NCBI GenBank assembly: GCA_965248535.1
Contig: CBDFJR010000002.1
Coordinates: 128,001 to 192,000 of the forward strand
Reading direction: 5' to 3'
Origin: Phormidesmis sp.
GTDB taxonomy: Bacteria; Cyanobacteriota; Cyanobacteriia; Leptolyngbyales; Leptolyngbyaceae
Length of the DNA: 64,000 bases
Positions 18,170 through 34,431 of the stretch are shown here, piece after piece. Within the stretch, counting starts at the first letter, position 1. Each line of letters starts with the position of its first letter. Under the pieces are notes generated by a model. The model made no database searches and was not told the DNA's origin. It saw nothing but the letters and a program-made list of their open reading frames with translations. The translations under genes were made by a program, and so were the position numbers.

Positions 18170-18240
<71 letters not shown>

Positions 18241-19612: not shown

Positions 19613-20880
19613 TAGTCAGTCAGTCCTCGTCCTTGAATGGCGGCTAGTCCTTCCGCTGTGAGAACTGGGCTTTCGGTGTAGTAACCAGCCGCTTTTTTTG
19701 CCTCGATCTCGACCTGAGCATCTGCCGGAATCAAGTCGTCAGGGATGGCGACTCGCTGAATGACCTGAATGCCAGATTGAGTGATGGCGTTATATTTGAG
19801 GTCGCTCATTGAGACTAAGCGATCGATGCGGGTGATGCCCAGCCAATGCAGCACGTCGGGCATGAGTTCTTGAAAGCGCATATCCTGCACGCCAGCGACA
19901 CATTCAGTGCGAGTGAAGTAGGAATCAGCCCGATCGCCCCCCGTTTGTCGTTTGCGGGCGTTGTAGACCAAAAACTTAGTGACTTCTCCTAGCGCCCGCC
20001 CTTCTTTGCGGAGGTAGACCACCACACCTGCGCCGCCTGCTTGGGCGGTTTGAATGCAGGTTTCGAGTCCGTGTACCAAATAGGGGCGACAGGTGCAAAT
20101 ATCTGAGCCAAAAACATCAGAGCCATTGCATTCATCGTGAACTCTGACAGCCAGAGGTCTATCGGGATCGGTAATTGCTGCTGGGTCGCCAATCATGTAG
20201 ACGGTGATGCCCCCGATCGGGGGCAGAAAAACTTTCAGATCCGGGCGAGTCACCAGATCTGAAAACATGCCGCCCGTGTGGTCAAACAACGCTCGCCGCA
20301 GCAGACTTTCGTCAACGTTAAACCGTTTGGCCAGACCAGGAAGATACCACACAGGCTCGATCGCCGCTTTGATCACTTCTAGGTTGCCGCCTGGCTTCAT
20401 GACCGTGCCATCTTCGACTAAGCGCCCTTTAGCAACCGCGTCTTGAAGCTCTGGCAGGTTAATATGGGCTTTGGTGATAGCGATCGAGGGTCGAATGTCA
20501 TATCCCTGCTGATAGAGAGACTGATAAACATCGCTGACGACAGCCCCAAAGGGGTCGAGAGAAATAATCCGATCGGGGTCTGCCCAAGCCGGGTGCGGGC
20601 CAATTTTAACCACGGGTGAGGTGTTGGTGAGATCAGCCCGGTGGCTTGCTTGCAGTCTGCCGCTGCCCACAGCTAGCGCTCGATAGACTGCATAGGGCCC
20701 TGAATGGGTGCCAATCACGTTGCGGTGGGCAGGGTTGAGCAGGGTGCCCACGATCGGGCCTCGTTCTAGGGGGTCTGCGGCTCCCCAATTAATAACACTG
20801 GCTGGAGAAAATCGCGATGGGTGGGATGCCAGAACCCTACGGTTCTGCTTTGGACTGATGGGCTGACTGACCATAGACAC
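19612..20880 (-). CDS. URC1/Urg1-type GTP cyclohydrolase II family protein
   Basis: RNVIGTHSG N-terminal domain; RVHDECNGSDVFGSDICTCRPY; EGRALGEVTK. Confidence 0.9.
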   Translation of the reverse strand: MSMVSQPISPKQNRRVLASHPSRFSPASVINWGAADPLERGPIVGTLLNPAHRNVIGTHSGPYAVYRALAVGSGRLQASHRADLTNTSPVVKIGPHPAWADPDRIISLDPFGAVVSDVYQSLYQQGYDIRPSIAITKAHINLPELQDAVAKGRLVEDGTVMKPGGNLEVIKAAIEPVWYLPGLAKRFNVDESLLRRALFDHTGGMFSDLVTRPDLKVFLPPIGGITVYMIGDPAAITDPDRPLAVRVHDECNGSDVFGSDICTCRPYLVHGLETCIQTAQAGGAGVVVYLRKEGRALGEVTKFLVYNARKRQTGGDRADSYFTRTECVAGVQDMRFQELMPDVLHWLGITRIDRLVSMSDLKYNAITQSGIQVIQRVAIPDDLIPADAQVEIEAKKAAGYYTESPVLTAEGLAAIQGRGLTD

Positions 20881-21110
20881 TCCCCGACGTGATGATTAAA
20901 AAATTCTAAAGTTAATCGATTTGGGATAGCCTTCGATATTAGCAACACCTGTTGAAATAGCACAGTAGTCTGTAAGGCAGAAATTATCGGAGTTGTCTAT
21001 TAGGGTTGTTGAGGCTGAATTGTTCACGGCTACTCTCTCGATCGCCCCCGTCGCGTTGCCTTGCCCCAAAGTCTGGGCACTCTACCAAAGCATTCGTCAT
21101 GGAATTTGTC

Positions 21111-22637
21111 ATGCTTGCCAAGGTTTGGAGTGCATCGCTCGTCGGCATTGATGCGGTGAAAGTGGGGGTCGAAGTAGACATCGCGGGAGGGCTGCCCGGA
21201 ATGGTCGTGGTAGGGCTGCCAGACACGAGTGTGCAAGAGTCTAAAGAGCGGGTCAAGACGGCTCTCAAGAATGCAGGCTATGCCTTTCCGATGCGGCGAA
21301 TTGTGATTAATCTAACTCCCGCAGACTTGCGAAAAGAAGGGCCGAGTTTTGATTTGCCAATCAGTGTTGGCATTCTGGCTGCCTCCGAGCAAGTCAAAAT
21401 TGAGTTGCTAGAGACGCATTTGTTTCTGGGCGAAGTTTCGCTTGACGGAACTCTCAGACCTGTGGCAGGGGTGTTGGCGATCGCCGCTGCCGCTCAACGG
21501 CTCGGCATTTCTGGGTTAGTCGTCCCGGCGGGCAATGCCCGCGAAGCGGCGGTAGTCAAAGGCATCTCGGTCTATGGCTTTGGTCACTTGTCTGAGGTGG
21601 GGCAGTTTCTCACCGACCCGACGGCTCACACGCCCATGCAAGTAGATATGGCAGAAGAACTGGAGCGATCGCAGACTCCAGCTTTTGACTTGAGGGATGT
21701 CAAAGGCCAGGCCCATGCGCGTCGAGCGCTAGAAATCGCGGCTGCCGGAGGACACAATCTGGTGTTTGTCGGGCCCCCCGGCAGTGGCAAAACCATGCTG
21801 GCTCGTCGCCTACCCGGAATCTTGCCACCGCTCTCGTTTGAGGAAGCCCTAGAGGTGACCCAGGTTCACTCAGTAGCGGGGTTGCTAAAGGACAAAGGCT
21901 CTTTGGTGAGCACTCGTCCGTTTCGCAGCCCGCACCATTCTGCGTCGGGGGCTTCACTGGTGGGCGGCGGCAGCTATCCGAGACCGGGCGAAATCTCTCT
22001 GGCTCACAGAGGAATATTGTTTCTAGATGAATTGACAGAATTTAAGCGCGACGTGCTGGAGTTTTTGCGGCAGCCTTTAGAAGACGGTCACGTTACCATT
22101 TCTCGCGCTCGGCAGTCGGTCTCGTTTCCGGCTCGATTTACGCTGGTTGCTAGCACTAATCCCTGTCCCTGTGGTTTCTTTGCTGACACGGTGCAGGCTT
22201 GTACCTGTTCTCCGCGATCGCGAGAGCACTATTGGGCAAAACTATCGGGCCCATTGATGGATCGGATTGATCTGCAAGTTGGGGTCAATCGGCTCAAGCC
22301 AGAAGAGATCACTCGACAGCCTACGGGCGAAGACTCAGAAACGGTGCGATCGCGGGTGCAAATTGCTCGTGATCGGGCCCGTCTGCGATTTAAAAACACC
22401 GATTTACGCTGCAATGCCGAGATGCAAAGTTCCCATCTCAGGCAGTGGTGCAAGCTAGATGACTCGACCCGCAATCTTCTCGAAGGCGCGATTCGCAAAC
22501 TGGGATTATCAGTCAGAGCCAGCGATCGCATTCTCAAAGTGGCGCGCACGATCGCCGATCTCGCGGGGGATGAGCCTCTCCAAACCCATCATGTTGCCGA
22601 AGCGGTGCAATATCGCACGATCGATCGAATGCAATAG
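21111..22637 (+). CDS. comM: YifB/ComM Mg-chelatase-like AAA+ ATPase
   Basis: VGLPD..V.ESKERV, NLTPADLRKEG, GPPGSGKT, PFRSPHH, NPCPCG. Confidence 0.93.
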   Translation: MLAKVWSASLVGIDAVKVGVEVDIAGGLPGMVVVGLPDTSVQESKERVKTALKNAGYAFPMRRIVINLTPADLRKEGPSFDLPISVGILAASEQVKIELLETHLFLGEVSLDGTLRPVAGVLAIAAAAQRLGISGLVVPAGNAREAAVVKGISVYGFGHLSEVGQFLTDPTAHTPMQVDMAEELERSQTPAFDLRDVKGQAHARRALEIAAAGGHNLVFVGPPGSGKTMLARRLPGILPPLSFEEALEVTQVHSVAGLLKDKGSLVSTRPFRSPHHSASGASLVGGGSYPRPGEISLAHRGILFLDELTEFKRDVLEFLRQPLEDGHVTISRARQSVSFPARFTLVASTNPCPCGFFADTVQACTCSPRSREHYWAKLSGPLMDRIDLQVGVNRLKPEEITRQPTGEDSETVRSRVQIARDRARLRFKNTDLRCNAEMQSSHLRQWCKLDDSTRNLLEGAIRKLGLSVRASDRILKVARTIADLAGDEPLQTHHVAEAVQYRTIDRMQ

Positions 22638-22700
22638 AAACTAGTTAGATTGAGACCTGATTTGAGCACTCTAGCCAGAGTCTTAAAAGAATTGGTTGCT

Positions 22701-24110
22701 ATGTCAAAAAACTATCGTCAAGTCCGCAAGTCAACAGTCGTCAAAAACTCCGCTGGTCAGCAATTCCAACTAGGCGGCTATCGCCCCGAAAAGCAGAACT
22801 CTCAAGACAAAAAATACAGTGCGGGTCGCGATCGTTCCCTGCCTTCTAAAGTCGATCTTCGCGCCTACATGACTCCGGTCGAAAATCAGGGCAACTCCAA
22901 TAGCTGCACCGCCAACGCCATGGCAGGGGCCTATGAATATCTGACAAACCGCCTGCTCGGACAATCGGAAGATGTCAGCCGTTTGTTCATCTACTACAAC
23001 GCACGAGAATTTGACGGCGACCCCAGCCAAGACCAAGGCACATATCTGAAAAGCTGCGTCAAAGTGTTGCGAAAATATGGCGCTTGTTCTGAAAACACTT
23101 GGTCGTTTAACCTCGAACAAATTCTAGAGCAGCCGCCTAAAAAGGCTTATGCAGAAGCCACAAACTTCCGAGTTGAAGACGCGGCTCGTGTGGAGGTCGA
23201 TCTTCACGCCATGCGGAGTTGTCTGGCAGAGGGCTATCCGTTTGCGTTTGGCTTGCAGCTTTTCGAGTCTTTTCAGCAGGCAGGCTCTAGCGGATTGGTG
23301 CCCATGCCTGACCCCGATCGCGAAAAGCACGACGGCGGCCACGCGATGCTGTGTGTGGGCTATTCTGACCCTGATCAAGTTTTTATCGTTCGCAATTCAT
23401 GGGGCGATGACTGGGGCGAGCAGGGCTATTGCTACATCCCTTACGACTACATGACCAAGCCTGATTTTAACCACGACTGCTGGACGATTCGCCAAGTCAG
23501 CGATCGTGACCTGAGTCAGGGCATTCAGGGCAGTTCGGCTCCTCTGTTTAGTGGGTCAAAGGCGGCGATCGCGACTGCATTTCAAACCCCCGGCGCAATT
23601 TATCAACCCTCAGTGATCGCCTTGTTAGAAGAGTCTCACTATGAGACTTACACGGTTGAATATGAAGAAGAGCTTGTCTACATCGAAAACCAAGGGTTTG
23701 TCTCCGTCGATGCTTACGAGAACCTCGATTTTCTCTACTTCCAGGAGTATGACGAAACTGAAGAAGAGTCCGACGACAGCGACGAAGACTCTGAATTCTA
23801 CGAGGAGACTGTAACCGAATACGAAGAAGAGTCCGACGACGAAAAGTCCGACGAAGACGACTCTGAAGAAATCGATAACAGCGACGACGAAGAGTCTGAC
23901 GAAGACGACGAAGAGGAAAGCGACGAAGACGAAGAAGATATCGACGCAGAGACTGAAGGCAGCGACGACGAAGAGGATTCTGAAGAAGAGGAAGATCCTG
24001 AAGAGGAAGATCCTGACGAAGAGGCTTCCGAAGAAAGCGACGAAGAAAGCGAAGACAGTTATGAAGAAGAGTCTGAAGAAGATTTAGGAGGCGATGAAGG
24101 CGAAGAGTAG
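22701..24110 (+). CDS. Papain-like C1 cysteine peptidase with very acidic C-terminal tail
   Basis: QGNSNSCTA, GGHAM and IVRNSWG catalytic motifs; last ~120 aa mostly D/E/S. Confidence 0.87.
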   Translation: MSKNYRQVRKSTVVKNSAGQQFQLGGYRPEKQNSQDKKYSAGRDRSLPSKVDLRAYMTPVENQGNSNSCTANAMAGAYEYLTNRLLGQSEDVSRLFIYYNAREFDGDPSQDQGTYLKSCVKVLRKYGACSENTWSFNLEQILEQPPKKAYAEATNFRVEDAARVEVDLHAMRSCLAEGYPFAFGLQLFESFQQAGSSGLVPMPDPDREKHDGGHAMLCVGYSDPDQVFIVRNSWGDDWGEQGYCYIPYDYMTKPDFNHDCWTIRQVSDRDLSQGIQGSSAPLFSGSKAAIATAFQTPGAIYQPSVIALLEESHYETYTVEYEEELVYIENQGFVSVDAYENLDFLYFQEYDETEEESDDSDEDSEFYEETVTEYEEESDDEKSDEDDSEEIDNSDDEESDEDDEEESDEDEEDIDAETEGSDDEEDSEEEEDPEEEDPDEEASEESDEESEDSYEEESEEDLGGDEGEE

Positions 24111-24266
24111 GGCTAACCGATAGCGCGATCGCACAAATTCCATCAAAACCTGCTGCAATGCCCAGGCTGACTATTTCAACAGCGTGGGCATTGCCGTGAC
24201 ATAACCCACCATTTATCAAGCAAATTAGACGCTACAATGTGACGGTTGTATTCTGCACGACGAGCC

Positions 24267-25562
24267 TTGATAGAGCGCTATACCCTACCCGAAATGGGCA
24301 ATTTGTGGACTGAAGCCTATAAATTTCAAACCTGGCTAGAGGTTGAGATCGCCGTCTGCGAAGCTCAGGCTGAGTTGGGTTACATTCCGGCTGAGGCCGT
24401 TGCAGACATCAAAGCAAAAGCAACCTTTGACCCCAAACGCATCTTAGAAATCGAGGCCGAAGTTCGGCACGATGTGATTGCGTTTCTCACTAACGTTAAT
24501 GAATCTGTAGGCGAAGCCGGACGATACATCCACTTGGGCATGACCAGTTCTGATGTCCTAGACACCGCCCTGGCACTGCAACTTGTCGCCAGTTTAGATG
24601 TGATTATGTCTCACGTTGAGGCGTTGATTCAGGCACTTCGCTATCAGGCTCAACAGCACCGCAACACCGTCATGATTGGGCGATCGCACGGCATTCACGC
24701 CGAGCCAATCACCTTTGGCTTTAAGCTGGCTGGCTGGCTGGCAGAAATGCTGCGACACCGCGATCGTCTCTGTCAACTCAAAAAAACCATTGCCGTCGGT
24801 CAAATCTCTGGCGCGGTTGGCACCTACGCCAACATTGACCCTCGCATTGAGTCTTTAACCTGTCAAAACCTGGGACTCGAACCCGATGCTGCCTCGACGC
24901 AGGTGATTTCTCGCGATCGCCACGCCGATTATATGAATGGCTTGGCGCTGTTAGCCTCGTCGATCGAGCGTTTTGCCGTAGAAATTCGCAACCTTCAGCG
25001 CACCGATGTTTTAGAAGTTGAAGAGTTTTTCTCAAAGGGACAAAAAGGCTCCTCTGCAATGCCCCATAAGCGGAACCCGATCCGGTCAGAGCGTCTCACC
25101 GGAATGGCTCGTCTCATCCGAGGCTATGCGGTTGCCGCGATGGAAAACGTTGCGCTCTGGCACGAGCGAGATATTTCCCATAGCTCAGTCGAACGGGTGG
25201 CCTTTCCCGATGCCTGCATTTTGACTCACTTCATGTTGGTCGAAACGACTGACTTGGTGAAAAACCTGCTGGTTTACCCCGACAACATGGCGCGCAACAT
25301 GAACCTTTATGGGGGAGTCGTTTTTAGTCAAAGAGTTTTGTTGGCGCTGATTGGCAAAGATGTCAGTCGCGAAGAGGCGTATACGATCGTGCAGTCATGC
25401 GCTCATCAAGCCTGGAACAAACCCGAAGGTGACTTCCGCAAGTTGATTAGTGAAGACCCCCGCGTGGTCGAAAAGCTCTCCCCGGCTGAAATTGCTGATT
25501 GTTTCGATCCTCAACATCATCTCAAAAATCTAGATCAGGTTTATCAACGACTAGGCATTTGA
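24267..25562 (+). CDS. purB: Adenylosuccinate lyase
   Basis: HDVIAF, TSSD, GRSHGIHAEP, GSSAMPHKRNP signature. Confidence 0.96.
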   Translation: MIERYTLPEMGNLWTEAYKFQTWLEVEIAVCEAQAELGYIPAEAVADIKAKATFDPKRILEIEAEVRHDVIAFLTNVNESVGEAGRYIHLGMTSSDVLDTALALQLVASLDVIMSHVEALIQALRYQAQQHRNTVMIGRSHGIHAEPITFGFKLAGWLAEMLRHRDRLCQLKKTIAVGQISGAVGTYANIDPRIESLTCQNLGLEPDAASTQVISRDRHADYMNGLALLASSIERFAVEIRNLQRTDVLEVEEFFSKGQKGSSAMPHKRNPIRSERLTGMARLIRGYAVAAMENVALWHERDISHSSVERVAFPDACILTHFMLVETTDLVKNLLVYPDNMARNMNLYGGVVFSQRVLLALIGKDVSREEAYTIVQSCAHQAWNKPEGDFRKLISEDPRVVEKLSPAEIADCFDPQHHLKNLDQVYQRLGI

Positions 25563-25689
25563 GCTTCTTAGACTCTACTGTTCCATCCAAGGCAGATTCA
25601 CATCGTCAGGCATTCCAATCGGCAAGAAAGATAGTCAACGTAATCAAGTTACTGCACCCTTCTGGAACACAACCGAAAAAGGTTAGCAA

Positions 25690-25839
25690 ATGATGACTAT
25701 ATTGCTTTTGATTGTGTGTTTTGTGGTCACGGTCTTGCTCCTCCTTGGGGTTCTGATCATCGGCATAGGCGTTCACTTCACCCTACAGAACCTTAAAGCG
25801 CCGTTAATTCAAAGAATGGCACGGGTGGTCAGCAAATAA
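25690..25839 (+). CDS. Possible 49-aa single-TM protein
   Basis: MMTILLLIVCFVVTVLLLLGVLIIGIGVHF...; below the ORF-track cutoff, read manually. Confidence 0.35.
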   Translation: MMTILLLIVCFVVTVLLLLGVLIIGIGVHFTLQNLKAPLIQRMARVVSK

Positions 25840-26241
25840 AGAGCGCCAAGTGATGGTTTCAACTGGCTTGGGCACCGTTCCTTTTCCAATATTTTCTGTT
25901 ACTTTTGCCTTCCAAAATAGTTCGCCAGAGAAATTTGAAGTCAGTTCGTCGCAGTATCGGGGCATTCAAGAAGGCAGTTATGGAATCTTTGCCTCCCAAA
26001 GAACCTGGTATAAACGGTTCGATAGTACTGAAGCGTTTCAGTAAGCCCTAGACTTCTGTTTCCCTTTTAGTGGTTGTCTTCTGACCTGCGTTTCTATCTT
26101 TTTTCTACTAGTTTGGTTCGCGATTTATGGAGCAGTTTAATCTTCGTCGGTCGTTGGATGGATTTAATTTAAGTACAGAACAAAAAACTTAGCCTGTGGA
26201 CATACTGCGCTCGCCGACGATCGCACTCACTCTACCCAAAC

Positions 26242-28161
26242 TCACTCCATTCGGGCAAAATGCTCTAGTAGCATCCGATGGACAAAGATATAACCGCCGC
26301 CAACTTTTTGCAGAAAAATGCGCTCACTGGCGTAGTCGAGGAAGCGGGAATAGTCCCAGGGAATACAATTGTTGCGGTGAAGGATGGATCGTAAGATGAA
26401 GTGTTGGAGGCAGGCTTTACCACCTCCAAAAAACAGCCCAAAGATCAGTCCGAAAATTAGCCCCAGTCCCAGCCATTGTAGTTGCCCTAGAAAAATTACA
26501 ATCAGCAAGCCAATTCCTGCGCCTATCATTCCTAAAATAAGGGCGTTTCTAACTGAGTTCCAAATTCCTTGATTAGGAGATGTTTTTCTCTCTATTTTTG
26601 GGCCGATCAGTCCACCTAGCAAGCCCAAAATTAGTCCACTAATTAGCCCATACGCGATTATTAAGATAGGCATGAGTGGTGATAAAAGAGAAATTCCCAC
26701 AATTATTCCCAAAGGCAATCCTCCAAGGAATCCTTGTTTCGCAGACTTTATGGCTTCTTGCCAAGACCATTTCAAGCTTTCATCTTGCCAAGACCATTTC
26801 AACGTTTCAACTGTTTTGATTTCATCCATCCGCCAAGCTAATTTCCATTCCTCCATCTTCCACCAAGCTAAAGGTAGGACGATACTCATTCCAATGATTA
26901 GTCCCTGTAATGGACTCAATACAAAACAACCAATCAGGAAACCCATCATTAACCCCATCAGGCGAGTTCCCCATTCATAGACCTTTTTTTGGGTCGTTTC
27001 TAACCAAGTCGGCTGCATTCCCTCAATAAAAAAGACCGTTTGCGATGCGTGAGACATCCGTTGCGCTAGCCAAGTTAGCCAGTGTATGGACTGACCCTTC
27101 GAGTATTGTTGATTAACTCCCTTTCGCTTGAACATCCGCTCAATATAAGAATTGAATAAGTGTTCACGATGTGCTTCTACTGAACCTGTTTGAAGTATTT
27201 CTTCTACCTTTTTGCCTTGATAAGCCAAAGTCATAACATTAAGCGTTAGAGGAGACTTCGCTAACTCTTGCAGTGCGGTATCTTCGGACAGCAGAGTTTT
27301 GACGGCTTCTAGTTGTTCACCTGCCGCGTCTAAATAGTGGTTAACCTGCTCAGGAGTCAGAGAGCGGATGTAGATCGCGCCCCGTAATTGCAGACGGTTA
27401 GACAGAACTTCATAGTCTGCAATCCGACTACAGACCACTATCTCAGTCTGCCCGTGCGTTTGCATAAACTGGTTGATAGCTTCGACGCAGGCTTCTCGCC
27501 GATCGGACTTTACCTCGTCTAGACCGTCTAGCAGTAGGAGTAGTTGTTGATCTTCAATCCAGGTTTTAGCAAGAGTCTTGGAAACTTTATACTGACTGTA
27601 CAGTTCCTCAATCAGCCAATCTGCGATCGTTTGCCGTTTGCTGCCCCAAGAAGATAAGTTAAACACCACTGGACTCAGCCGACTCAAACCCCCTTCAGCA
27701 CGAGCAATCAAATTCTGTGCCAGTTTTAGGAGGGTTATTGTTTTCCCAGCCCCTGGGTCTCCCAAAATCAACAGAGTTCGCCCCTCTCCGATTTGATTGA
27801 AGACCTCAGTTGCGCCTGTCCCTGAAGGCAAAATTTGTCTGGACTCTTCTGGTAGCTCCTCGAAGCTACTAAATGAACGTTCTATTGCATCCGATCGCTT
27901 TTCTAGACCAAGTTCAATCATTGTCTTGGTGTGCAATGACTTTTCTAAGACCCCTTCAATCCAATAATCTTTGACTTTACTGAGTAAAACTTGCCTCTGG
28001 CGGTATTCTACCTGAGTTAAAGATTGTTCTGCACTGGGTGATTGCCCACTAATTAACTCAGAGACTTGGGAAATGAAGTATTGAGTGACGGCTCCATGAT
28101 TTTCTTGGATAAACCCCTGAACATTTCCGCCAGAGATGTTGACAAAATTATCGGCAGTCAT
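26242..28161 (-). CDS. NACHT NTPase (NLR-like) with N-terminal amyloid-like motif and C-terminal transmembrane repeats
   Basis: Walker A GDPGAGKT, Walker B LLLLDGLDE, CSR, PLTL; Gly/Leu-rich TM repeats; FLDYA....FLQKVGGGYIFVHRML tail. Confidence 0.9.
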   Translation of the reverse strand: MTADNFVNISGGNVQGFIQENHGAVTQYFISQVSELISGQSPSAEQSLTQVEYRQRQVLLSKVKDYWIEGVLEKSLHTKTMIELGLEKRSDAIERSFSSFEELPEESRQILPSGTGATEVFNQIGEGRTLLILGDPGAGKTITLLKLAQNLIARAEGGLSRLSPVVFNLSSWGSKRQTIADWLIEELYSQYKVSKTLAKTWIEDQQLLLLLDGLDEVKSDRREACVEAINQFMQTHGQTEIVVCSRIADYEVLSNRLQLRGAIYIRSLTPEQVNHYLDAAGEQLEAVKTLLSEDTALQELAKSPLTLNVMTLAYQGKKVEEILQTGSVEAHREHLFNSYIERMFKRKGVNQQYSKGQSIHWLTWLAQRMSHASQTVFFIEGMQPTWLETTQKKVYEWGTRLMGLMMGFLIGCFVLSPLQGLIIGMSIVLPLAWWKMEEWKLAWRMDEIKTVETLKWSWQDESLKWSWQEAIKSAKQGFLGGLPLGIIVGISLLSPLMPILIIAYGLISGLILGLLGGLIGPKIERKTSPNQGIWNSVRNALILGMIGAGIGLLIVIFLGQLQWLGLGLIFGLIFGLFFGGGKACLQHFILRSILHRNNCIPWDYSRFLDYASERIFLQKVGGGYIFVHRMLLEHFARME

Positions 28162-28178
28162 TTTCTAAGCGCCCTTGA

Positions 28179-28556
28179 TTAACTGAAGTTTTGAGTTATC
28201 GTCCCAGTATTTTGCTGTGTCAAACCTTGAACTGTACCCCCAGAAATTTGAACACTAAATTTCCCTTCCGCTGCTTCTTGAGGATGTAGTTGTTCCATTA
28301 ACTTTTGAGCCAGTTTAACAATTTCTTCGTCTTTGTCAGCTCCAGCCTCAGTTAATTCATCTTCTAAAAGAGGTCTCGTCTTTTCGGGCTTCTGTTCATA
28401 CTTATCCAGGATAGTAGCTGAATCTGATTTTCCTTGACTCTCAAACTTGTGCTTAATCAAGGCTTTCAAGCCGTTGTAAGCATCTTGAGCGACACCACCA
28501 GCCGTTTTTGCTGCACCAGCTACCAATGCTGCAAGGATAAGAGAAATAGGATCCAT
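28179..28556 (-). CDS. Bell-like helical effector with C-terminal amyloid-like motif
   Basis: MDPISLILAALVAGA...AQDAYNGLKALI N-terminus; C-terminal motif 14/23 identical to the N-terminus of the adjacent NACHT. Confidence 0.8.
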   Translation of the reverse strand: MDPISLILAALVAGAAKTAGGVAQDAYNGLKALIKHKFESQGKSDSATILDKYEQKPEKTRPLLEDELTEAGADKDEEIVKLAQKLMEQLHPQEAAEGKFSVQISGGTVQGLTQQNTGTITQNFS

Positions 28557-28774
28557 AAATTCATCTCCTGAGGTTTAAGTTTTGAGTCAAACCATCTGTT
28601 GCGTTTAAGATAGGACAGGAAAAGAGATAACACTGGAAAGACGCAGATATCGTGATGTTTCTTGATAAACAGATTTGAGTATCAGTGCGATCGCTTTAAC
28701 CAAGAGCTTACGGGGTTTTGGCGATTTCTTCCTACCGATCTCTTCCCGATTGCAGCCTCATCAAGGATTCAGGG

Positions 28775-29560
28775 GCATAACGGCTCAAATCAGCGGCGGC
28801 AGACAATTTCTGTGACTCCACCGAGACCTCGCGCCCTTCCGCTCCAACGTGTTGTGTACGCCCAGCATGGGTGTGAACTAATGGGGTGAAAGTCCCCTGT
28901 CGGAGAACCAACGTCCAAATGATCCCAAAAGATCCGAGTGACGACAACGACTAGCTTAAGGTAAGGGCGTTTCCGCGAGGAAGGGTCTGAAGGAAGCCAG
29001 CGGCAAATCTGCGAGCTGACGGACAGAAACGTCATAGAAGGCTGAGATTCCTGTGGCAAGTGAGCACAACATCATGAAGCCTTTTGGTTCAGGGAACACA
29101 GTAAATGACGCAGTTGTGCAGAGACAGTTCACGTTCTTATCTGGGGAGATCTGCTCAAAGGGCGGTCTGAGGGTCTACGGGAGTCTGATTGAGGTCTAGC
29201 GGGAAACGGCTAGGGAGCCACGGAACCCTAAGGACATTCAGGCAGCGTGAGTCATGGCAACAGGACTCATGATTGAGCAGAAGTCAGCAGAGGTCATAGT
29301 AGCCAAACACTCACCGTAATGGGTGAGACAGGGTGAAGGGCTGAACCTTAGAAAGCAGGGAGGAGTTGCAAAGCTCGACTGGGCGATGAACCCGAACGGG
29401 GGAGCTATTTTGTCGGCGCTTAACTGCACAACCAGCCCTGGATATTCAGTTCTATTGAACTGGCTTGTCTAAAACTTTTCTGGGGACGCGCCCCGTGCGG
29501 AGCCGCACGCGGGGTGCCGTGGGGACTGGGGGAGAAAATCCCCTGGTTACCCGATTATGC
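28775..29560 (-). other. attC site interrupted by a group II intron (86 bp when rejoined: 28775-28855 + 29556-29560)
   Basis: On the cassette strand, rejoined GCATAAC ... GTTATGC with internal AGCGG/CCGCT pairing; starts 4 nt after the dprA stop. Confidence 0.85.
28856..29555 (+). mobile_element. ORF-less group IIC-attC intron, 700 nt
   Basis: 5' GTACGCCCAGCATGGG after exon TTGT; short class-C domain V with CGC triad (~29485-29520); domain VI ending TTACCCGAT; no RT ORF; antisense to cassette genes. Confidence 0.88.
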
Positions 29561-29564
29561 TGTT

Positions 29565-30557
29565 CTACGATGATGCAATAAGACTGAGTTGAACCATCTG
29601 ATTATCTAGAGCCTTGTTCTCATTTACAGAATCACTCCTCTCTAAAATTGAAGTGATTTTTTGAACACCATTTTCCAATGAGATCTCGTGACAGCCTAGT
29701 TGAATTAAGTCCGAATTACCAATTGGGGGTTGTGCCAAGCAGTTTGGTGAGAGAACAAAAACTGGTATGTTCATCGCCATTGCACTTCTAGCAGCATCAA
29801 ACGTGCCACTCATCCTGCCTTTACTATCAATTTCTTGTCCTGAAGCTATAACAACAACTGCATCTGCCAGCGCACAAACCAACTTATTTCGTGCCATAGC
29901 ATTTCGAGCAAGCCACTTTTCTGAAGGGTTGAATTGCGAAAGAACAAGAGTGTTATACGCAGTAAAAAAGGGTTTGAATTCCTTCTTGGCTTCAAAATTT
30001 AGAATGCCTAGACTAAGAATAATCGTAGTAGTACCTTCTGCTTCTAAAGCGCCTAAATGAGCGGCAGAATCAACACCTTTAGCATAACCAGAGACAATAT
30101 TAAACCCTGCTCTAGCTAGTCCCTTTGCTAACTCAGCTGTGATGGCAAGAGCATCTTCACCAACGTTACGCGAACCAACAATTGAAATGCTTGGTGATTT
30201 TGCAAGTGGTGTATGCCCTCTTGCGTACAAGACTGGGGGAATGTTGTATTGCCGCCCATACTTCTTCAGTCTAGAGGGAAAGTCAGGAGATTCAGGATGC
30301 AGAATCTTCACTCTATTTGTCTCTAGCTGTTCGTAAGCGCGTTGAATCAATTCGTAATCCTGTTCATGCGGAAAGGATTTGAGTGTAGTTCTCAGTCTTC
30401 CTGAGATTTTTGGAAAATCTAATTTCCTATTAGTTAGGAAATTGTTAAGATCGGTAGATTCTCCAGATACGAGATCGTGAACTTCCCACAGCAATTTCGT
30501 CCCTATTCCTTTGGCGCGAGCCAACCGAAACCAATCGAAACTGCTGCTGTAAGTCAT
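29565..30557 (-). CDS. DprA/Smf-family protein (ShosA-like)
   Basis: PPVLYARG, SIVGSR, IVSGYAKGVDSAAH, ARNKLV; ATG 30557 overlaps the upstream TGA (ATGA). Confidence 0.87.
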   Translation of the reverse strand: MTYSSSFDWFRLARAKGIGTKLLWEVHDLVSGESTDLNNFLTNRKLDFPKISGRLRTTLKSFPHEQDYELIQRAYEQLETNRVKILHPESPDFPSRLKKYGRQYNIPPVLYARGHTPLAKSPSISIVGSRNVGEDALAITAELAKGLARAGFNIVSGYAKGVDSAAHLGALEAEGTTTIILSLGILNFEAKKEFKPFFTAYNTLVLSQFNPSEKWLARNAMARNKLVCALADAVVVIASGQEIDSKGRMSGTFDAARSAMAMNIPVFVLSPNCLAQPPIGNSDLIQLGCHEISLENGVQKITSILERSDSVNENKALDNQMVQLSLIASS

Positions 30558-31177
30558 CTTTTTGTCCTCGTCATCGTTATCGTTAGCACGTAGACTCTCG
30601 CTACACCCCCCTGGAACGTGAGAGCATTGCACACTGCGTTCAAGGTTTCCCCAGACCTAAAGAGATCGTCAAACACCAAAAGAGACTGCTGAGCGTATCT
30701 TTGGTCAGCGACCTGAAACGCACCTTGCATTTGTTGCTGGCGAATTTCAGCGTCTTCTATATCTTTCAGCGCTTGTGTCTGTCTAACCTTGATGAGGTAA
30801 TCGTCTGGTACAGAAAGCCCAGTCTTCTCCCCGATCGCTTTCGCTAATTCTAACACTGGCTGAAAAGGGCGGTCTAATTTGGATGGTGGAACAGCGACGA
30901 TGCTTTGGAAGTAGCGAAAAACCCTAAAATTATTCCGGATATAATTTGCAGCAATCTCAGCCATTGGCTCGACTTTGCTACGGTCAAAATTATACTTTAG
31001 CTGATAGAGAGCTTCACCCAGTTCAGTACGGGTTGTATCAAACCCTCCATCACTCCGAGAAACGCTCGACACTGTATGTAGATCAAGTGCTACTCCATAA
31101 ATCCACGAACCATTAATAACTCTTGGGTCAATATTCACGGTCGAAGCCCGCCCTATCCCGTCTTGTGAAGCTCTCAT
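30554..31177 (-). CDS. ComF-like phosphoribosyltransferase (ShosT-like)
   Basis: LYQLKY, VPPSK..R.FQP, PRPP loop LVFDDLFRSGETL. Confidence 0.85.
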   Translation of the reverse strand: MRASQDGIGRASTVNIDPRVINGSWIYGVALDLHTVSSVSRSDGGFDTTRTELGEALYQLKYNFDRSKVEPMAEIAANYIRNNFRVFRYFQSIVAVPPSKLDRPFQPVLELAKAIGEKTGLSVPDDYLIKVRQTQALKDIEDAEIRQQQMQGAFQVADQRYAQQSLLVFDDLFRSGETLNAVCNALTFQGGVARVYVLTITMTRTKR

Positions 31178-31242
31178 TTTATCTTGTGTGACTATACCTG
31201 ATTACCAGGCCTAGATTGCCCACAAAATAAAGCGAATGTGCA

Positions 31243-31328
31243 GCCTAACGTTCCCAATCAGCGGCGACAGATATGACTGAAACGAAGTGCAAAGACTTTT
31301 TACGTCCGCTGCATTGGGGTTGTTATGC
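31243..31328 (-). other. attC recombination site (86 bp)
   Basis: Cassette strand: GCATAAC-AACCC-AATGCAGCGG ... CCGCTGATT-GGGAAC-GTTAGGC, 4 nt after the stop at 31333; unpaired base in the L arm. Confidence 0.9.
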
Positions 31329-31332
31329 CGCG

Positions 31333-32466
31333 CTATGGACACGAACTGTTTTTGCCATTAATAGTCCACGTATCGTTAGCGATCCAACCTGTTCGTCCTC
31401 CAGATGTAATTTCAAAATAGCCTTCTGTAGAACCCGCAAATTCTCTTGTCACGTAATCCGAGACCGTATAATTGCCAGAGCTTACCCTGATAAGCTCTTG
31501 ACTGAATCTGTCTGGGGCACTTCTTAAGGAAACCAAAGAATTATTAATTGCTACAACACATCCTGACGAAGCAATAGCTTGCCTCCTAGCTACTTCTGCC
31601 CGTTGACGCGCAAGCTCCTGTTGCCGTGCAAGTTCTTGCTGACGTGCAGCCTCTGCTTGCTGACGTGCAAATTCTCTCTGCCGTTCAGCCTCTTCCTGAG
31701 CAGCACGTTGTCTTGCAGCCTCTTCCTGAGCAGCACGTTGTCTTGCAGCCTCTTCCTGGGCAGCGCGTTGCCGTTCAGCTTCTTCTTGGGCGGCACGTTG
31801 TCTTGCAGCCCCTTGCTCGTCAGTGTTTGAGTTAGGGGGTACAGATGGCTTATTACCTGAACTTGATGGTAGTTGCGGCGAGACAACGGTGTTAGGCTTG
31901 CTAGGCTCTCCAACTTCGCCACCAACAGCTTTAGCAAATTTTAGAGCTTTAGTGTCAGAAATAAAACTTGCGACTAGGACTGCCTTCTCACCTGTTTGCC
32001 TAGTTGCGTTGATGGCATCTTTGCAGTACTTCTGCTTGACTTCATCTAAGTTTCCACCATTTATAAATACTGGATACCAAGTACTGTTGGAATCTGTAGA
32101 CTTATCCCCACAAGAGTCTTGGGGAAACTGAGGTTCACTGAGTTGAGAGTCATTACTCTGTTCAGGCTTTCTATTGATCGGGCTTTGGGTAGGTAACGCA
32201 ATAGCTGACGATTCCTCAGATTTCGGACTGAAAGTCCCAACTACTTTAATTCCAACCTCCCTAGCTCCATAAAGAAAGAGAAAAAGAGGTATTAATGCAA
32301 AAGCAACCTTTCCCCAGTGTCCGTTTCGAGAATTATTGTAGATGTACTGAATATAGTCTCGTCCGACTTGAATTAAATCTCTACCAGCTTGACCTATTTG
32401 TCCTGAATTTTCAGCGTTGTTAAGCTCGATATCCTGATCTACATCATGAGGCTTTTTCTGGCTCAT
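31333..32466 (-). CDS. Membrane-anchored protein: N-terminal SGQIGQAGRDL motif, TM, Cys-paired extracellular domain, coiled-coil repeats, C-terminal SH3b-like domain
   Basis: TM VAFALIPLFLFLYG; FPQDSCGD...YPVF...YCKDA...VASF...GGEVGEP; (AARQRAAQEE)n; VSLRSAP...YFEI....TGWI. Confidence 0.75.
   Translation of the reverse strand: MSQKKPHDVDQDIELNNAENSGQIGQAGRDLIQVGRDYIQYIYNNSRNGHWGKVAFALIPLFLFLYGAREVGIKVVGTFSPKSEESSAIALPTQSPINRKPEQSNDSQLSEPQFPQDSCGDKSTDSNSTWYPVFINGGNLDEVKQKYCKDAINATRQTGEKAVLVASFISDTKALKFAKAVGGEVGEPSKPNTVVSPQLPSSSGNKPSVPPNSNTDEQGAARQRAAQEEAERQRAAQEEAARQRAAQEEAARQRAAQEEAERQREFARQQAEAARQQELARQQELARQRAEVARRQAIASSGCVVAINNSLVSLRSAPDRFSQELIRVSSGNYTVSDYVTREFAGSTEGYFEITSGGRTGWIANDTWTINGKNSSCP
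31680..31811. repeat. 30-bp coding tandem repeat, about 4 units (A[A/E]RQRAAQEE)
   Basis: Repeats of GCAGCACGTTGTCTTGCAGCCTCTTCCTGA with variants. Confidence 0.85.
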
Positions 32467-32489
32467 AATTTTGCTCTATGGTTGATGAA

Positions 32490-32909
32490 TCAAAGTCCAA
32501 AGAAACTTTTTGCCACACCGAACCAAGGTAGAAGACCTTCAATAATTGGCTTTACCTTTCCAAATAAGCCTTGACCCGCACTAACTGTCTCATCTGCATT
32601 CTTCAAAACTTCAGTAGCCCTCTGCAAGCTAGTTGCTGCAAAATTCTTTTGAGGCTCTTTACTTTCTGCTTCTTCTTTCGCTGTCTCGATATGCCGAATT
32701 GCTTTGCTTTTCTCTGAATCGGACAAGTTTGAACTCCAAATTAATTCCTCAATTTGTGCCAAACCTGCCACTACGTCGGTAGGAGTCAATATTCCCTCAG
32801 TTTTGATCTGGTTCTGGGTCAAATCTCGTCCTGCTTGACCGATTTGTCCTGATACTTGACTACCGCTAATGGAGATGGATTGAGACTGGTAGGGCTTTTC
32901 TCCTGACAT
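32490..32909 (-). CDS. Small helical protein with N-terminal SGQIGQAGRDL motif and amphipathic C-terminus
   Basis: 139 aa; GGAG RBS upstream; ends GLFGKVKPIIEGLLPWFGVAKSFFGL. Confidence 0.78.
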   Translation of the reverse strand: MSGEKPYQSQSISISGSQVSGQIGQAGRDLTQNQIKTEGILTPTDVVAGLAQIEELIWSSNLSDSEKSKAIRHIETAKEEAESKEPQKNFAATSLQRATEVLKNADETVSAGQGLFGKVKPIIEGLLPWFGVAKSFFGL

Positions 32910-33067
32910 AGAACTCCTTATTTTACAACCGAGTAATATGGTCTGCTTCAGTATGCGTAACTTACTTCAGCTCTGACAGTACCCTTGAGGGTACTTTTCT
33001 CTGAAATAACTTGACTCTGGACAACAACAGATAACCTTCCAATTGCGTCCTTACCAAGAACTAAGCG

Positions 33068-33181
33068 GCATAACGATTGAGTTGAACCGCACCAAATCAA
33101 TCAAGCAACACCAACTTTAGTTGGTAGTGCGGTTAACCTTACGACTATTTGTAGCGTGTCGGTTCCAACGAAATGTTCTAC
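33068..33181 (-). other. attC-like site (114 bp) nearest intI
   Basis: Cassette strand: GTAGAAC-5nt-GTTGGAACC ... GGTTCAAC-6nt-GTTATGC, with an extra G in the left arm. Confidence 0.75.
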
Positions 33182-33233
33182 GGAACTGGGTGGATGTAGT
33201 GTTCCCAATGGGTAACATTTATATCCAGTTCTC

Positions 33234-33250
33234 GTGGAACTATTATGTGG
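33234..33250 (-). other. Candidate attI core (CATAATA-GTTCCAC on the cassette strand)
   Basis: GTTCCAC is one mismatch from the complement of the GTAGAAC box of the next attC; lies between intI and the array. Confidence 0.35.
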
Positions 33251-33465
33251 ACTGAAAGTTTCTGCCTAAGATCCCAATTTTAACGACTTAGCCTGAGTCT
33301 TTCCGCCCAAGTCCGAATCAAGCGACTTAGCCCGATATGATTTCCGCATAGTACCCCTCGACAGGGATCTTGGGCGGAAATCTTCAGTATTTCTTCCAAG
33401 AGAGAACCTGTTACCGTCCGCCTAAGATCCCGAATGACAGAATTACAGCCTTGGAACTCGCCGGG

Positions 33466-34431
33466 ATGGAACCACGACCCAGAAAGCTGCTCGAACAAGT
33501 CTCTGACCTGTTGCGAGTGAAGCACTATTCATACCGCACCGAGCAGACCTACGTTCAATGGATTCGGCGCTACATCCTGTTTCACAACAAGACCCATCCC
33601 AAAGACATGGGAAGTCCAGAGATTGAAGCCTTTCTAACGCATCTTGCAGTGCAAGAACAAGTGGCGGCATCGACGCAAAACCAAGCCCTCAGCGCCATTT
33701 TGTTCCTCTACCGCGAGGTGCTACGGCAAGAACTAGATGCTTCGATCGATGCTGTTCGAGCCAAGCAACCCCGCTATTTGCCCACGGTCTTGACAAAAGA
33801 TGAAGTCAGAGCCGTCATTGGCAACCTCAGTAGGGTGTATCAACTCGTCGTGCAGGTTCTTTATGGCAGCGGGGTGCGGTTAAACGAAGGATTGAACATC
33901 CGGGTCAAAGACCTCGATTTTGCTCAACAGCAAATCATCGTTCGCACGCCAAAAGGGGTTGAGAGTCGAGTCACGATGCTGCCCACCAGTCTAAACGAAC
34001 CGCTACATGAGCATCTGCAACGGGTACGCCGATTGCACCAGCAAGATTTAGCCCAAGGCTATGGAGCCGTGCATCTGCCGTATGCACTGGCTCGAAAGTA
34101 TCCGAATGCGGAGCGATCGTGGGTATGGCAGTTTGTGTTTCCGTCAGACCGTCGCTGTCGTGACCCTAGAACGGAGCAAATCAATCGCTTTCATCTGCAT
34201 GAAAGCGGAGTGCAGAAAGCCTTGAAGCAAGCCGTGTTTTCCGCAAGGATTCAAAAGCGAGTCGGCTGTCATACCTTTCGCCATAGCTTTGCGACGCATC
34301 TGCTGGAAGCAGGCTATGACATTCGGACGGTTCAAGAACTGCTGGGGCACAAAGATGTGAAAACGACGATGATTTATACTCACGTTCTCAATCGAGGTGG
34401 AAAAGGCGTGCGAAGTCCGCTTGATCCATAG
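33466..34431 (+). CDS. intI: Integron integrase (tyrosine recombinase)
   Basis: [23 protein letters not shown]; integron-specific insertion [12 protein letters not shown]....WQFVFPS; catalytic R (GVRLNE), HTFRH, LLGH, Y (TTMIYTHV). Confidence 0.96.

Follow-up and report, generated by a model that had tools for sequence, protein, structure and literature searches.

Group IIC-attC introns are defined by their target in the accessible text of the papers that describe them (PMC7923331, PMC3001079): they insert into the bottom strand of integron attC sites, at TTGT/T (IBS1/IBS3) within the R'' box, and in the orientation opposite to cassette transcription. The scarcity of introns in integrons has been called perplexing, the proposal in the accessible part of that work being that their antisense position perhaps limits expression (PMC3001079). 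The intron analysed here lies in a 64,000-nt stretch of cyanobacterial DNA (the whole of which is called the window) and shows all three parts of this published definition. With the described members (S.ma.I2, E.c.I7, Kl.pn.I1 and Kl.pn.I3) it shares the bottom-strand TTGT/T position in R'' and the antisense orientation to the cassettes, as well as the protein architecture, since the RT of its full-length relative has about 444 residues with RVT_1 and GIIM only. Additionally, IIC-attC introns are often found in the last cassette, as far as the accessible text goes (PMC3001079), and the window copy occupies the last attC. Nevertheless, it differs from them in having no RT gene (a 28-codon remnant is all that is left), in being present in many copies, which fill 8 of the 32 detected attC sites, and in its host, a filamentous cyanobacterium with scattered chromosomal attC sites, where no Pout-like promoter is predicted around the intron.

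Group II introns without an RT have been described in bacteria before, and the available part of a review treats them as rare and short-lived (PMC4424553). One example given there is C.te.I1 of Clostridium tetani, an ORF-less, single-copy intron with no related protein in its genome, which splices host mRNA (PMC4424553, accessible text). Like C.te.I1, the window intron is an ORF-less group II intron of a bacterium, but it is antisense to genes, multi-copy and accompanied by a candidate helper in the genome. In Thermosynechococcus elongatus, group II introns that lack an ORF are mobilised in trans by the proteins of related introns, and, as in the present case, RT-less derivatives multiply in a cyanobacterial genome beside RT-encoding relatives (PMC2882425, in the part available). 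The window family differs from these introns in having a deletion form that is common to many species and genera. Moreover, the window family consists of class C introns directed at attC hairpins, unlike the T. elongatus introns, which are reportedly chloroplast-like class 2 (IIB) elements homing to sequence-defined sites. SINE/LINE and MITE/transposon pairs offer a further, conceptual, analogy: there too a short derivative keeps the parts needed for recognition by a partner's enzyme, and here the RT-less copies outnumber the autonomous one 8 to 1 and form a lineage of their own. The analogy stops at the chemistry, the window element being a ribozyme that would carry out its own insertion into DNA.

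IIC-attC introns are therefore already known, and so are RT-less introns of bacteria that have helpers. Our literature search, which covered openly searchable papers and not subscription journals, turned up no paper in which an IIC-attC intron lacks its RT, and the combination described here (RT-less, attC-homing, multi-copy, cross-genus and occupying about a quarter of the detectable attC sites) is not in the searchable papers. In this genome, the gene-less form is the dominant form of the IIC-attC lineage, and it recurs in many species. The explanation that we consider likely, taken as a whole, is that the window holds one copy of a non-autonomous group IIC-attC intron, which would depend on a helper acting in trans and would block the recombination site into which it has inserted.

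The split attC site and its integron

The intron (28856-29555, + strand) is 700 nt long and runs from GTACG to CCCGAT. Its joints with the exons can be read to the base: TTGT (28852-28855) is followed by the GTACG that starts at 28856, and the CCCGAT that ends at 29555 is followed by TATGC (29556-29560). In the bottom-strand reading, the 5' part of the split attC (28775-28855, +; nhmmer attC profile match 28763-28855, E 4e-21) contains the R' complement box GCATAAC (28775-28781), the L-box stem and the first two bases of the R'' complement, while the 3' part (29556-29560, +) is the TATGC that makes up the remaining R'' complement. IBS1 corresponds to TTGT at 28852-28855 and IBS3 to the T at 29556. 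When 28775-28855 and 29556-29560 are rejoined, an attC of 86 nt is recovered, with an inverted 7-mer pair at its ends and a computed DNA hairpin of -10.3 kcal/mol. The intact neighbour, attC1 (31243-31328, +), which closes cassette 1, also has 86 nt (nhmmer E 3e-19) and folds at -15.3 kcal/mol. A first-pass annotation of this DNA had placed the intron between exactly these limits and had rejoined the same 86-nt site, and the sequence agrees with it to the base.

The host is a complete integron, with an integrase adjoining two attC sites, the split attC2 being the terminal one. The integron integrase gene (33370-34431, +; TIGR02249 467.6 bits, cut-off 265) is divergent from the cassettes, and a weak partial attC match (33057-33093, nhmmer) lies at the expected attI position. 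On the minus strand, the order is two cassette-1 ORFs without family (32490-32909 and 31333-32466), attC1, a ComF-like phosphoribosyltransferase gene (30554-31177; weak ComF/GntX matches, E 1e-5), a DprA/SLOG-like gene (29565-30632; PF02481 139.5 bits) and the split attC2. The last two genes overlap and together form cassette 2 (29565-31177, -), the owner of the split site. The intron on the plus strand is thus antisense to the cassette genes and interrupts the bottom strand of the attC at TTGT|T, an arrangement that the earlier annotation had also recognised. As side observations on the cassettes, the ComF-like and DprA/SLOG-like pair of cassette 2 resembles a conflict- or defence-type module rather than competence genes, and the 377-aa ORF of cassette 1 (31333-32466, -), which has no family match, carries a run of near-identical QRAAQEEA(E/A)R repeats.

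In the window, the nhmmer profile (E up to 10) returned no attC beyond the two sites and the weak partial match near attI, and a relaxed R-box pattern gave no accepted further site over 20000-34000; its matches at 29064-29119 and 30082-30171, which fall within the intron and the DprA gene, respectively, were discounted as spurious. With no attC found downstream of the split site by either search, there is no support for regarding the downstream genes as a cassette, and the proposal of the first-pass annotation that the intron locks the phosphoribosyltransferase-DprA cassette to a downstream module is not supported either. Neither a sigma-70-like promoter nor a terminator was predicted on either strand of 28400-29800, and this empty scan lends no support to a Pout-like promoter or to a promoter driving the intron. 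The genes upstream on the plus side of the intron run in the opposite direction.

Ribozyme architecture and lineage

Three Rfam models, which together cover D1, D2/D3 and DV-DVI, match the intron: RF02001 at 28969-29135 (127.8 bits, gathering threshold), RF01998 at 29246-29341 (63.7 bits, gathering threshold) and RF00029 (DV-DVI) at 29486-29555, the last one seen only in E-value mode with more permissive filters, at 43.5 bits against a gathering score of 40. In order to obtain a consensus fold, eight RT-less copies from six genomes were aligned. The resulting structure has 205 pairs arranged in the expected six domains, with 97.5% of the cells paired, and 49 of the 205 pairs show compensatory (both-side) changes among the eight sequences. 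Column shuffles gave 23.5 +/- 3.0 such pairs, none of 500 shuffles reaching 49, and controls in which the partners were slid by 1-3 columns gave 5-14.

The domains can be followed along the plus strand. Domain I (28861-29145, delimited by RF02001, the alignment and the fold) includes the EBS1 hairpin (29060-29075), whose invariant loop GCACAACA (29064-29071) contains, at 29066-29069, the ACAA that is the complement of the exon end UUGU; the hairpin stem shows compensatory changes in four of the eight sequences. Domain II (29146-29285) is a long branched arm of about 140 nt, and its consensus helices 15-19 contain 14 pairs altered on both sides. It is followed by J2/3 and domain III (29286-29345, from the RF01998 span and the fold) and by what remains of domain IV (29346-29485), which aligns to positions 460-570 of the full-length copy. 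According to the RF00029 alignment, domain V (29488-29517; helix 31, two compensatory pairs) has a CGC catalytic triad and a G-U wobble, and domain VI (29521-29552; helix 32, four compensatory pairs) has a bulged A at 29549. A CGC rather than AGC triad in domain V is linked to class C. Further class C features are a short IBS1 only (-4 to -1, with +1 conserved, and -5/-6 mixed over 26 sites) and a hairpin directly upstream of the insertion point. The group II review, in its accessible part, gives the triad as "CGC for some introns" (PMC4424553).

Domain IV is where the gene has been lost. Besides a 28-codon remnant beginning MNPNGGA (29386-29472, +), there is no longer ORF on the intron strand inside this domain. 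The remnant lies in the D4a arm (29356-29440, +), where a Shine-Dalgarno-like GGAGGAG and the place at which the RT used to start can still be read. The region aligns to the beginning of the full-length relative's RT gene, taking in the Shine-Dalgarno, the start codon and the first 20 or so codons. Invariant columns make up 65% of D4a, close to the 67% of D1, and 33% of distal D4. The conservation of D4a is at the level of the RNA, not of the peptide, since one-base indels among the aligned copies disrupt the reading frame of the remnant. The intron-encoded protein of well-studied group II introns binds mainly at D4a.

The stretch 28856-29555 is, in short, a complete six-domain group II ribozyme under structural selection, without an RT gene. 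This bears out the reading of the earlier annotation, in which a class C intron of the lineage that targets attC sites has no ORF but the MNPNGGA remnant in place of the RT ORF, by way of the Rfam models that it had proposed to run (all three of those named above match), the fold, the target site and the homology of the RNA. That annotation had let its reading depend on whether domains I-III fold and whether EBS1 pairs with TTGT: D1-D3 do fold, with covariation support, and the invariant loop offers ACAA to UUGU. Its description of GUACG as a variant 5' end needs to be amended, as GUACG is the norm of the lineage: the intron in the blaIMP-4 attC (Kl.pn.I3-type) also starts with GTACG.

That intron provides the link to class 1 integrons. 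A search with the C-terminal 329 aa of the full-length relative's RT retrieves many plasmid records at 53% identity; among plasmids, this RT is best matched by the RT of the integron intron (53%) and by an RT from a Methylocalor plasmid (68%). In the plasmid record examined (NZ_CP124701.1), the 53%-identical RT belongs to a class 1 integron, where it is flanked by blaIMP-4 and qacEdelta1 and runs antisense. The intron RNA of this record is 71-80% identical to the window intron over three segments, begins after TTGT with the same 16 bases (GTACGCCCAGCATGGG), has the same ACCCGAT end and is inserted at TTGT|TAG. We take Kl.pn.I3 to be a class C intron. In the published order blaIMP-4-Kl.pn.I3-qacEdelta-sul1, it sits in the blaIMP-4 attC (PMC5725488, in the text available). 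The RNA of the window intron is, on sequence comparison, homologous to the Kl.pn.I3-type intron, the lineage being placed by site, termini and RNA rather than by a protein tree. The window intron is accordingly a group IIC-attC derivative and not a standard member of that lineage, as the RT/maturase of domain IV is absent.

Copies, target sites and a candidate helper

Searching the 5.0-Mb genome (G000) with the 700-nt intron returned ten places. Six copies are 100% identical over positions 1-700 and have exactly the same ends, one copy (99%) has a damaged 5' end and a degraded site, one is 85% identical, one is a 130-nt fragment, and a full-length RT-encoding relative is 79% identical over query positions 1-447 (D1-D3). 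The near-full copies number eight, the window intron among them, and all eight complete copies lie inside attC-like sites, after (T/A)TGT and before T. The repetition of the same 700 nt six times at 100% identity, with identical ends and each time in an attC-like site, excludes chance as an explanation of 28856-29555. The 500-nt flanks of nine copies contain one related pair only (E 1e-5), which makes the copies separate insertions and not segmental duplications. This pair, 88.5% identical over 270 nt, lies downstream of an RT-less copy (G000:C2:1133221) and of the full-length one (C2:1673018), and the two flanks are paralogous cassettes whose attC sites carry different forms of the intron.

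In the genome, 32 attC-like sites were detected at E<1e-3 by an nhmmer profile that was built from the eight rejoined occupied sites, and that is therefore biased toward sites of this kind. They are scattered over two large contigs, and eight of them abut an intron. There are two integron integrases in the genome, the second of which (G000:C2:1131581-1132513, 466 bits) adjoins two more intron copies. The array next to it (G000:C2:1133221-1136863) has an identical RT-less intron in each of its first and third attC sites, and an empty attC in the middle.

The target is most strictly kept next to the insertion point. Over 26 sites of ORF-less copies from several genomes, -1 T and -2 G are invariant (26/26), -3 T is present in 24, -4 T in 19 and +1 T in 25, so that ACAA has a mismatch at -4 in seven of the 26. 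This count leaves out L073 (on the same contig as L017), L082 (whose 5' end was not found), L007 (with a damaged end) and the cut copies L015, L016, L074 and L079. Hairpins other than attC are also used by the family: in two other cyanobacteria, RT-less copies (L072:367-1067 and L071:370-1068) follow non-attC hairpins, one of them terminator-like with T's. These sites fit the ability of the IIC-attC lineage to use terminators, as given in the accessible text of PMC7923331.

Some part of the intron is matched in 22 of 61 related genomes (G000 counted). Contiguous RT-less copies are found in G000, G010 (nine full copies), G014 and G047, and copies cut by contig ends in G007 and G015; in all six genomes the RT-less copies share the same deletion junction. 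A pattern specific to this junction hit 15 stretches in a collection of species-representative genomes, all of filamentous cyanobacteria to judge by their titles (Leptolyngbyaceae, Oculatella, Stenomitos, Phormidesmis, Kovacikia, Pantanalinema, Leptolyngbya and two unclassified Cyanobacteria), and another 15 stretches in contigs from metagenomes. In the tree calculated from the 5' 490 nt, the full-length cyanobacterial copies form two clades (99/100 and 99/97) with no RT-less member, and both RT-less subfamilies of G000 fall in a 98/98 clade of eight RT-less copies from several genomes, over an unresolved backbone. The argument for a single origin of the RT-less form is the shared deletion junction, while the 5'-region tree neither shows nor excludes it. 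As a side observation, in four ice metatranscriptome runs, and in several glacier, sediment, soil and lichen metagenome runs, 8-16% of the words sampled from 27800-30600 were found; this is about the share of the intron in that stretch, and says nothing about expression or habitat.

TIGR04416 identifies a single group II RT locus in the genome, inside the full-length RT-encoding intron (G000:C2:1673018-1675016), and the only other RT match is of retron type (G000:C2:2381286). In the deposited assembly, the group II RT is split into two frames by an imperfect tandem duplication of roughly 80 nt (L011:1414-1501, that is, G000:C2:1673852-1673939). We compared this locus with Logan contigs from four runs of unrecorded kind (DNA or RNA); X1 and X2 carry 92-94% of the sampled words of the window, and X3 has another organism label. 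Contigs joining L011:1413 to 1502, with 17 letters between, are present in X1 (depth 30.7, shorter side 155 letters), X2 (depth 22.4, 97 letters) and X3 (depth 2, 255 letters). In X1 and X2, the joining contigs account for the full depth of the bin with the skipped 88 nt, and nothing covers these 88 nt. The joined form, put together from slices of the genome sequence, has a single ORF of 444 aa from the first Met, with YVDD, which is collinear without gaps, at 87% identity, with the intact RTs of G035 and G018, and in which RVT_1 and GIIM are the only domains. The duplication is probably an assembly error, and the group II RT is most likely intact in the organism, its split being a feature of the assembly. 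An additional joint in X3, which skips the whole full-length intron, was considered as an empty allele and rejected, its shorter side having only 24 letters; a paralogous empty attC is its most likely source.

The intact 444-aa RT of the read-derived contigs makes a helper acting in trans plausible. The first-pass annotation had expected that an RT would be needed in trans and had pointed to the rest of the genome for a full-length copy with an RT and for other 700-nt copies in attC sites. One full-length RT-encoding relative and further 700-nt copies in attC-like sites are indeed there, and its expectation gains support from this one relative, from the RT that is intact in the read-derived contigs and from the conserved D4a. 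As far as sequence comparison goes, the RT-less family most likely borrows the enzyme of this one full-length relative in the same genome. Elsewhere, the full-length relatives are broken in many assemblies and intact in three. In G010, nine near-identical RT-less copies occur alongside a cognate RT that looks interrupted in the assembly, which points either to frequent mis-assembly or loss of helpers or to a different route of spread. The apparent interruption can be seen in G010:C1:2201130-2210815 (L064, L048), where profile positions 2-74 of the cognate RT are followed, about 8 kb further on, by positions 69-353 (with a TGA).

Proposed spread of the RT-less form and its possible effect on cassettes

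Based on these observations, the following course of events can be proposed. An RT-less copy would be transcribed, and the maturase/RT of the full-length relative (G000:C2:1673018-1675016) would bind its retained D4a arm. The intron RNA would then recognise the folded, single-stranded attC bottom-strand hairpin, with the ACAA of EBS1 facing UUGU and a putative EBS3 facing the U at +1, and would reverse-splice into the DNA, where it would be copied by the helper RT. The proposal assumes cross-recognition, as the ribozyme of the helper is only 79% identical (D1-D3) to the RT-less copies. The insert separates five of the seven R'' bases from their R' partner by 700 nt, a distance at which IntI should not be able to use the split attC. 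The DprA/phosphoribosyltransferase cassette should then no longer be excisable by IntI. Since the split attC is terminal, the expected effect is an immobilised cassette and not a fusion to a downstream one.

The alternative that survives best, although we regard it as improbable, is that the copies are immobile fossils of a past spread, which have no working helper left and persist because deletion is rare. It would accommodate the split of the only group II RT in the deposited assembly, the several broken full-length relatives of other genomes, the copy in this genome whose 5' end is damaged and whose site is degraded, and the empty promoter scan (28400-29800). What it does not easily explain is that six copies are still 100% identical over 700 nt, that the read-derived contigs carry an intact RT and that purifying selection has acted on the ribozyme and on D4a across genera.

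Slightly less probable still is that the element is kept for a use to the host or the integron, be it the freezing of useful cassettes, the termination or driving of transcription into downstream genes (as with the Pout promoters of S.ma.I2) or the seeding of new cassettes in the model of Leon and Roy. For S.ma.I2, both Pout activity and impeded read-through from Pc have been described (PMC3001079, accessible text), and the occupation of 8 of the 32 detected attC sites and the persistence of the family across genera would fit a useful element. However, the scan predicted no promoter-like site on either strand of the intron, and what is conserved, the ribozyme and the protein-binding arm, would be needed equally by a selfish mobile element.

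A spread at the level of DNA and not by reverse splicing, whether cassettes were duplicated, copies were moved by the integrase or attC sites recombined homologously with one another, has a very low probability. Integrons do move cassettes, the attC sites resemble each other and the downstream flanks of two copies are 88.5% identical over 270 nt; yet these two copies are different forms of the intron, the other flank pairs of the nine copies are unrelated at E 1e-5, the attC sequences vary around intron ends that are exact to the base, and two copies in other species follow hairpins that are not attC. We give as little credence to mobilisation without the cognate RT, whether by the retron-type RT (G000:C2:2381286) or by host repair after protein-free reverse splicing, which would suit G010 with its nine copies and a cognate RT that looks interrupted in its assembly, but against which stand the conserved D4a arm (arguing for dependence on a maturase-type protein) and the lack of a maturase domain in retron RTs, the intron RT being marked by RVT_1 and GIIM.

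The trans-mobilised, attC-blocking intron thus remains the preferred explanation. If the family is mobile by way of a trans helper, it would offer a compact 700-nt system for the recognition of folded single-stranded DNA by class C introns, as well as a natural test of introns that switch off the recombination sites of integrons. Going further, one might think of a long-lived RT-less lineage that has lived beside its RT partner in numerous genera of the Leptolyngbyaceae type, in the manner of SINEs and LINEs, fills about a quarter of the attC sites detected in this genome and, by splitting R'', progressively disables them, driving the immobilisation of cassettes and the break-up of cyanobacterial integrons into scattered attC clusters that have no integrase, an idea that we put forward tentatively and hold to be possible but rather doubtful.

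Several other features of the window can be recorded. Directly downstream of the integron (26242-28556, -) are an ORF of 125 aa that matches no family and a NACHT ATPase of 639 aa, whose C-terminal half is hydrophobic and which has weak matches to antiphage NACHT proteins. Further away, a tRNA gene (18170-18240, -; Rfam RF00005, 66.5 bits) and a 486-aa ORF (22650-24110, +) are found, the C-terminal third of the latter being extremely acidic and rich in Asp and Glu.
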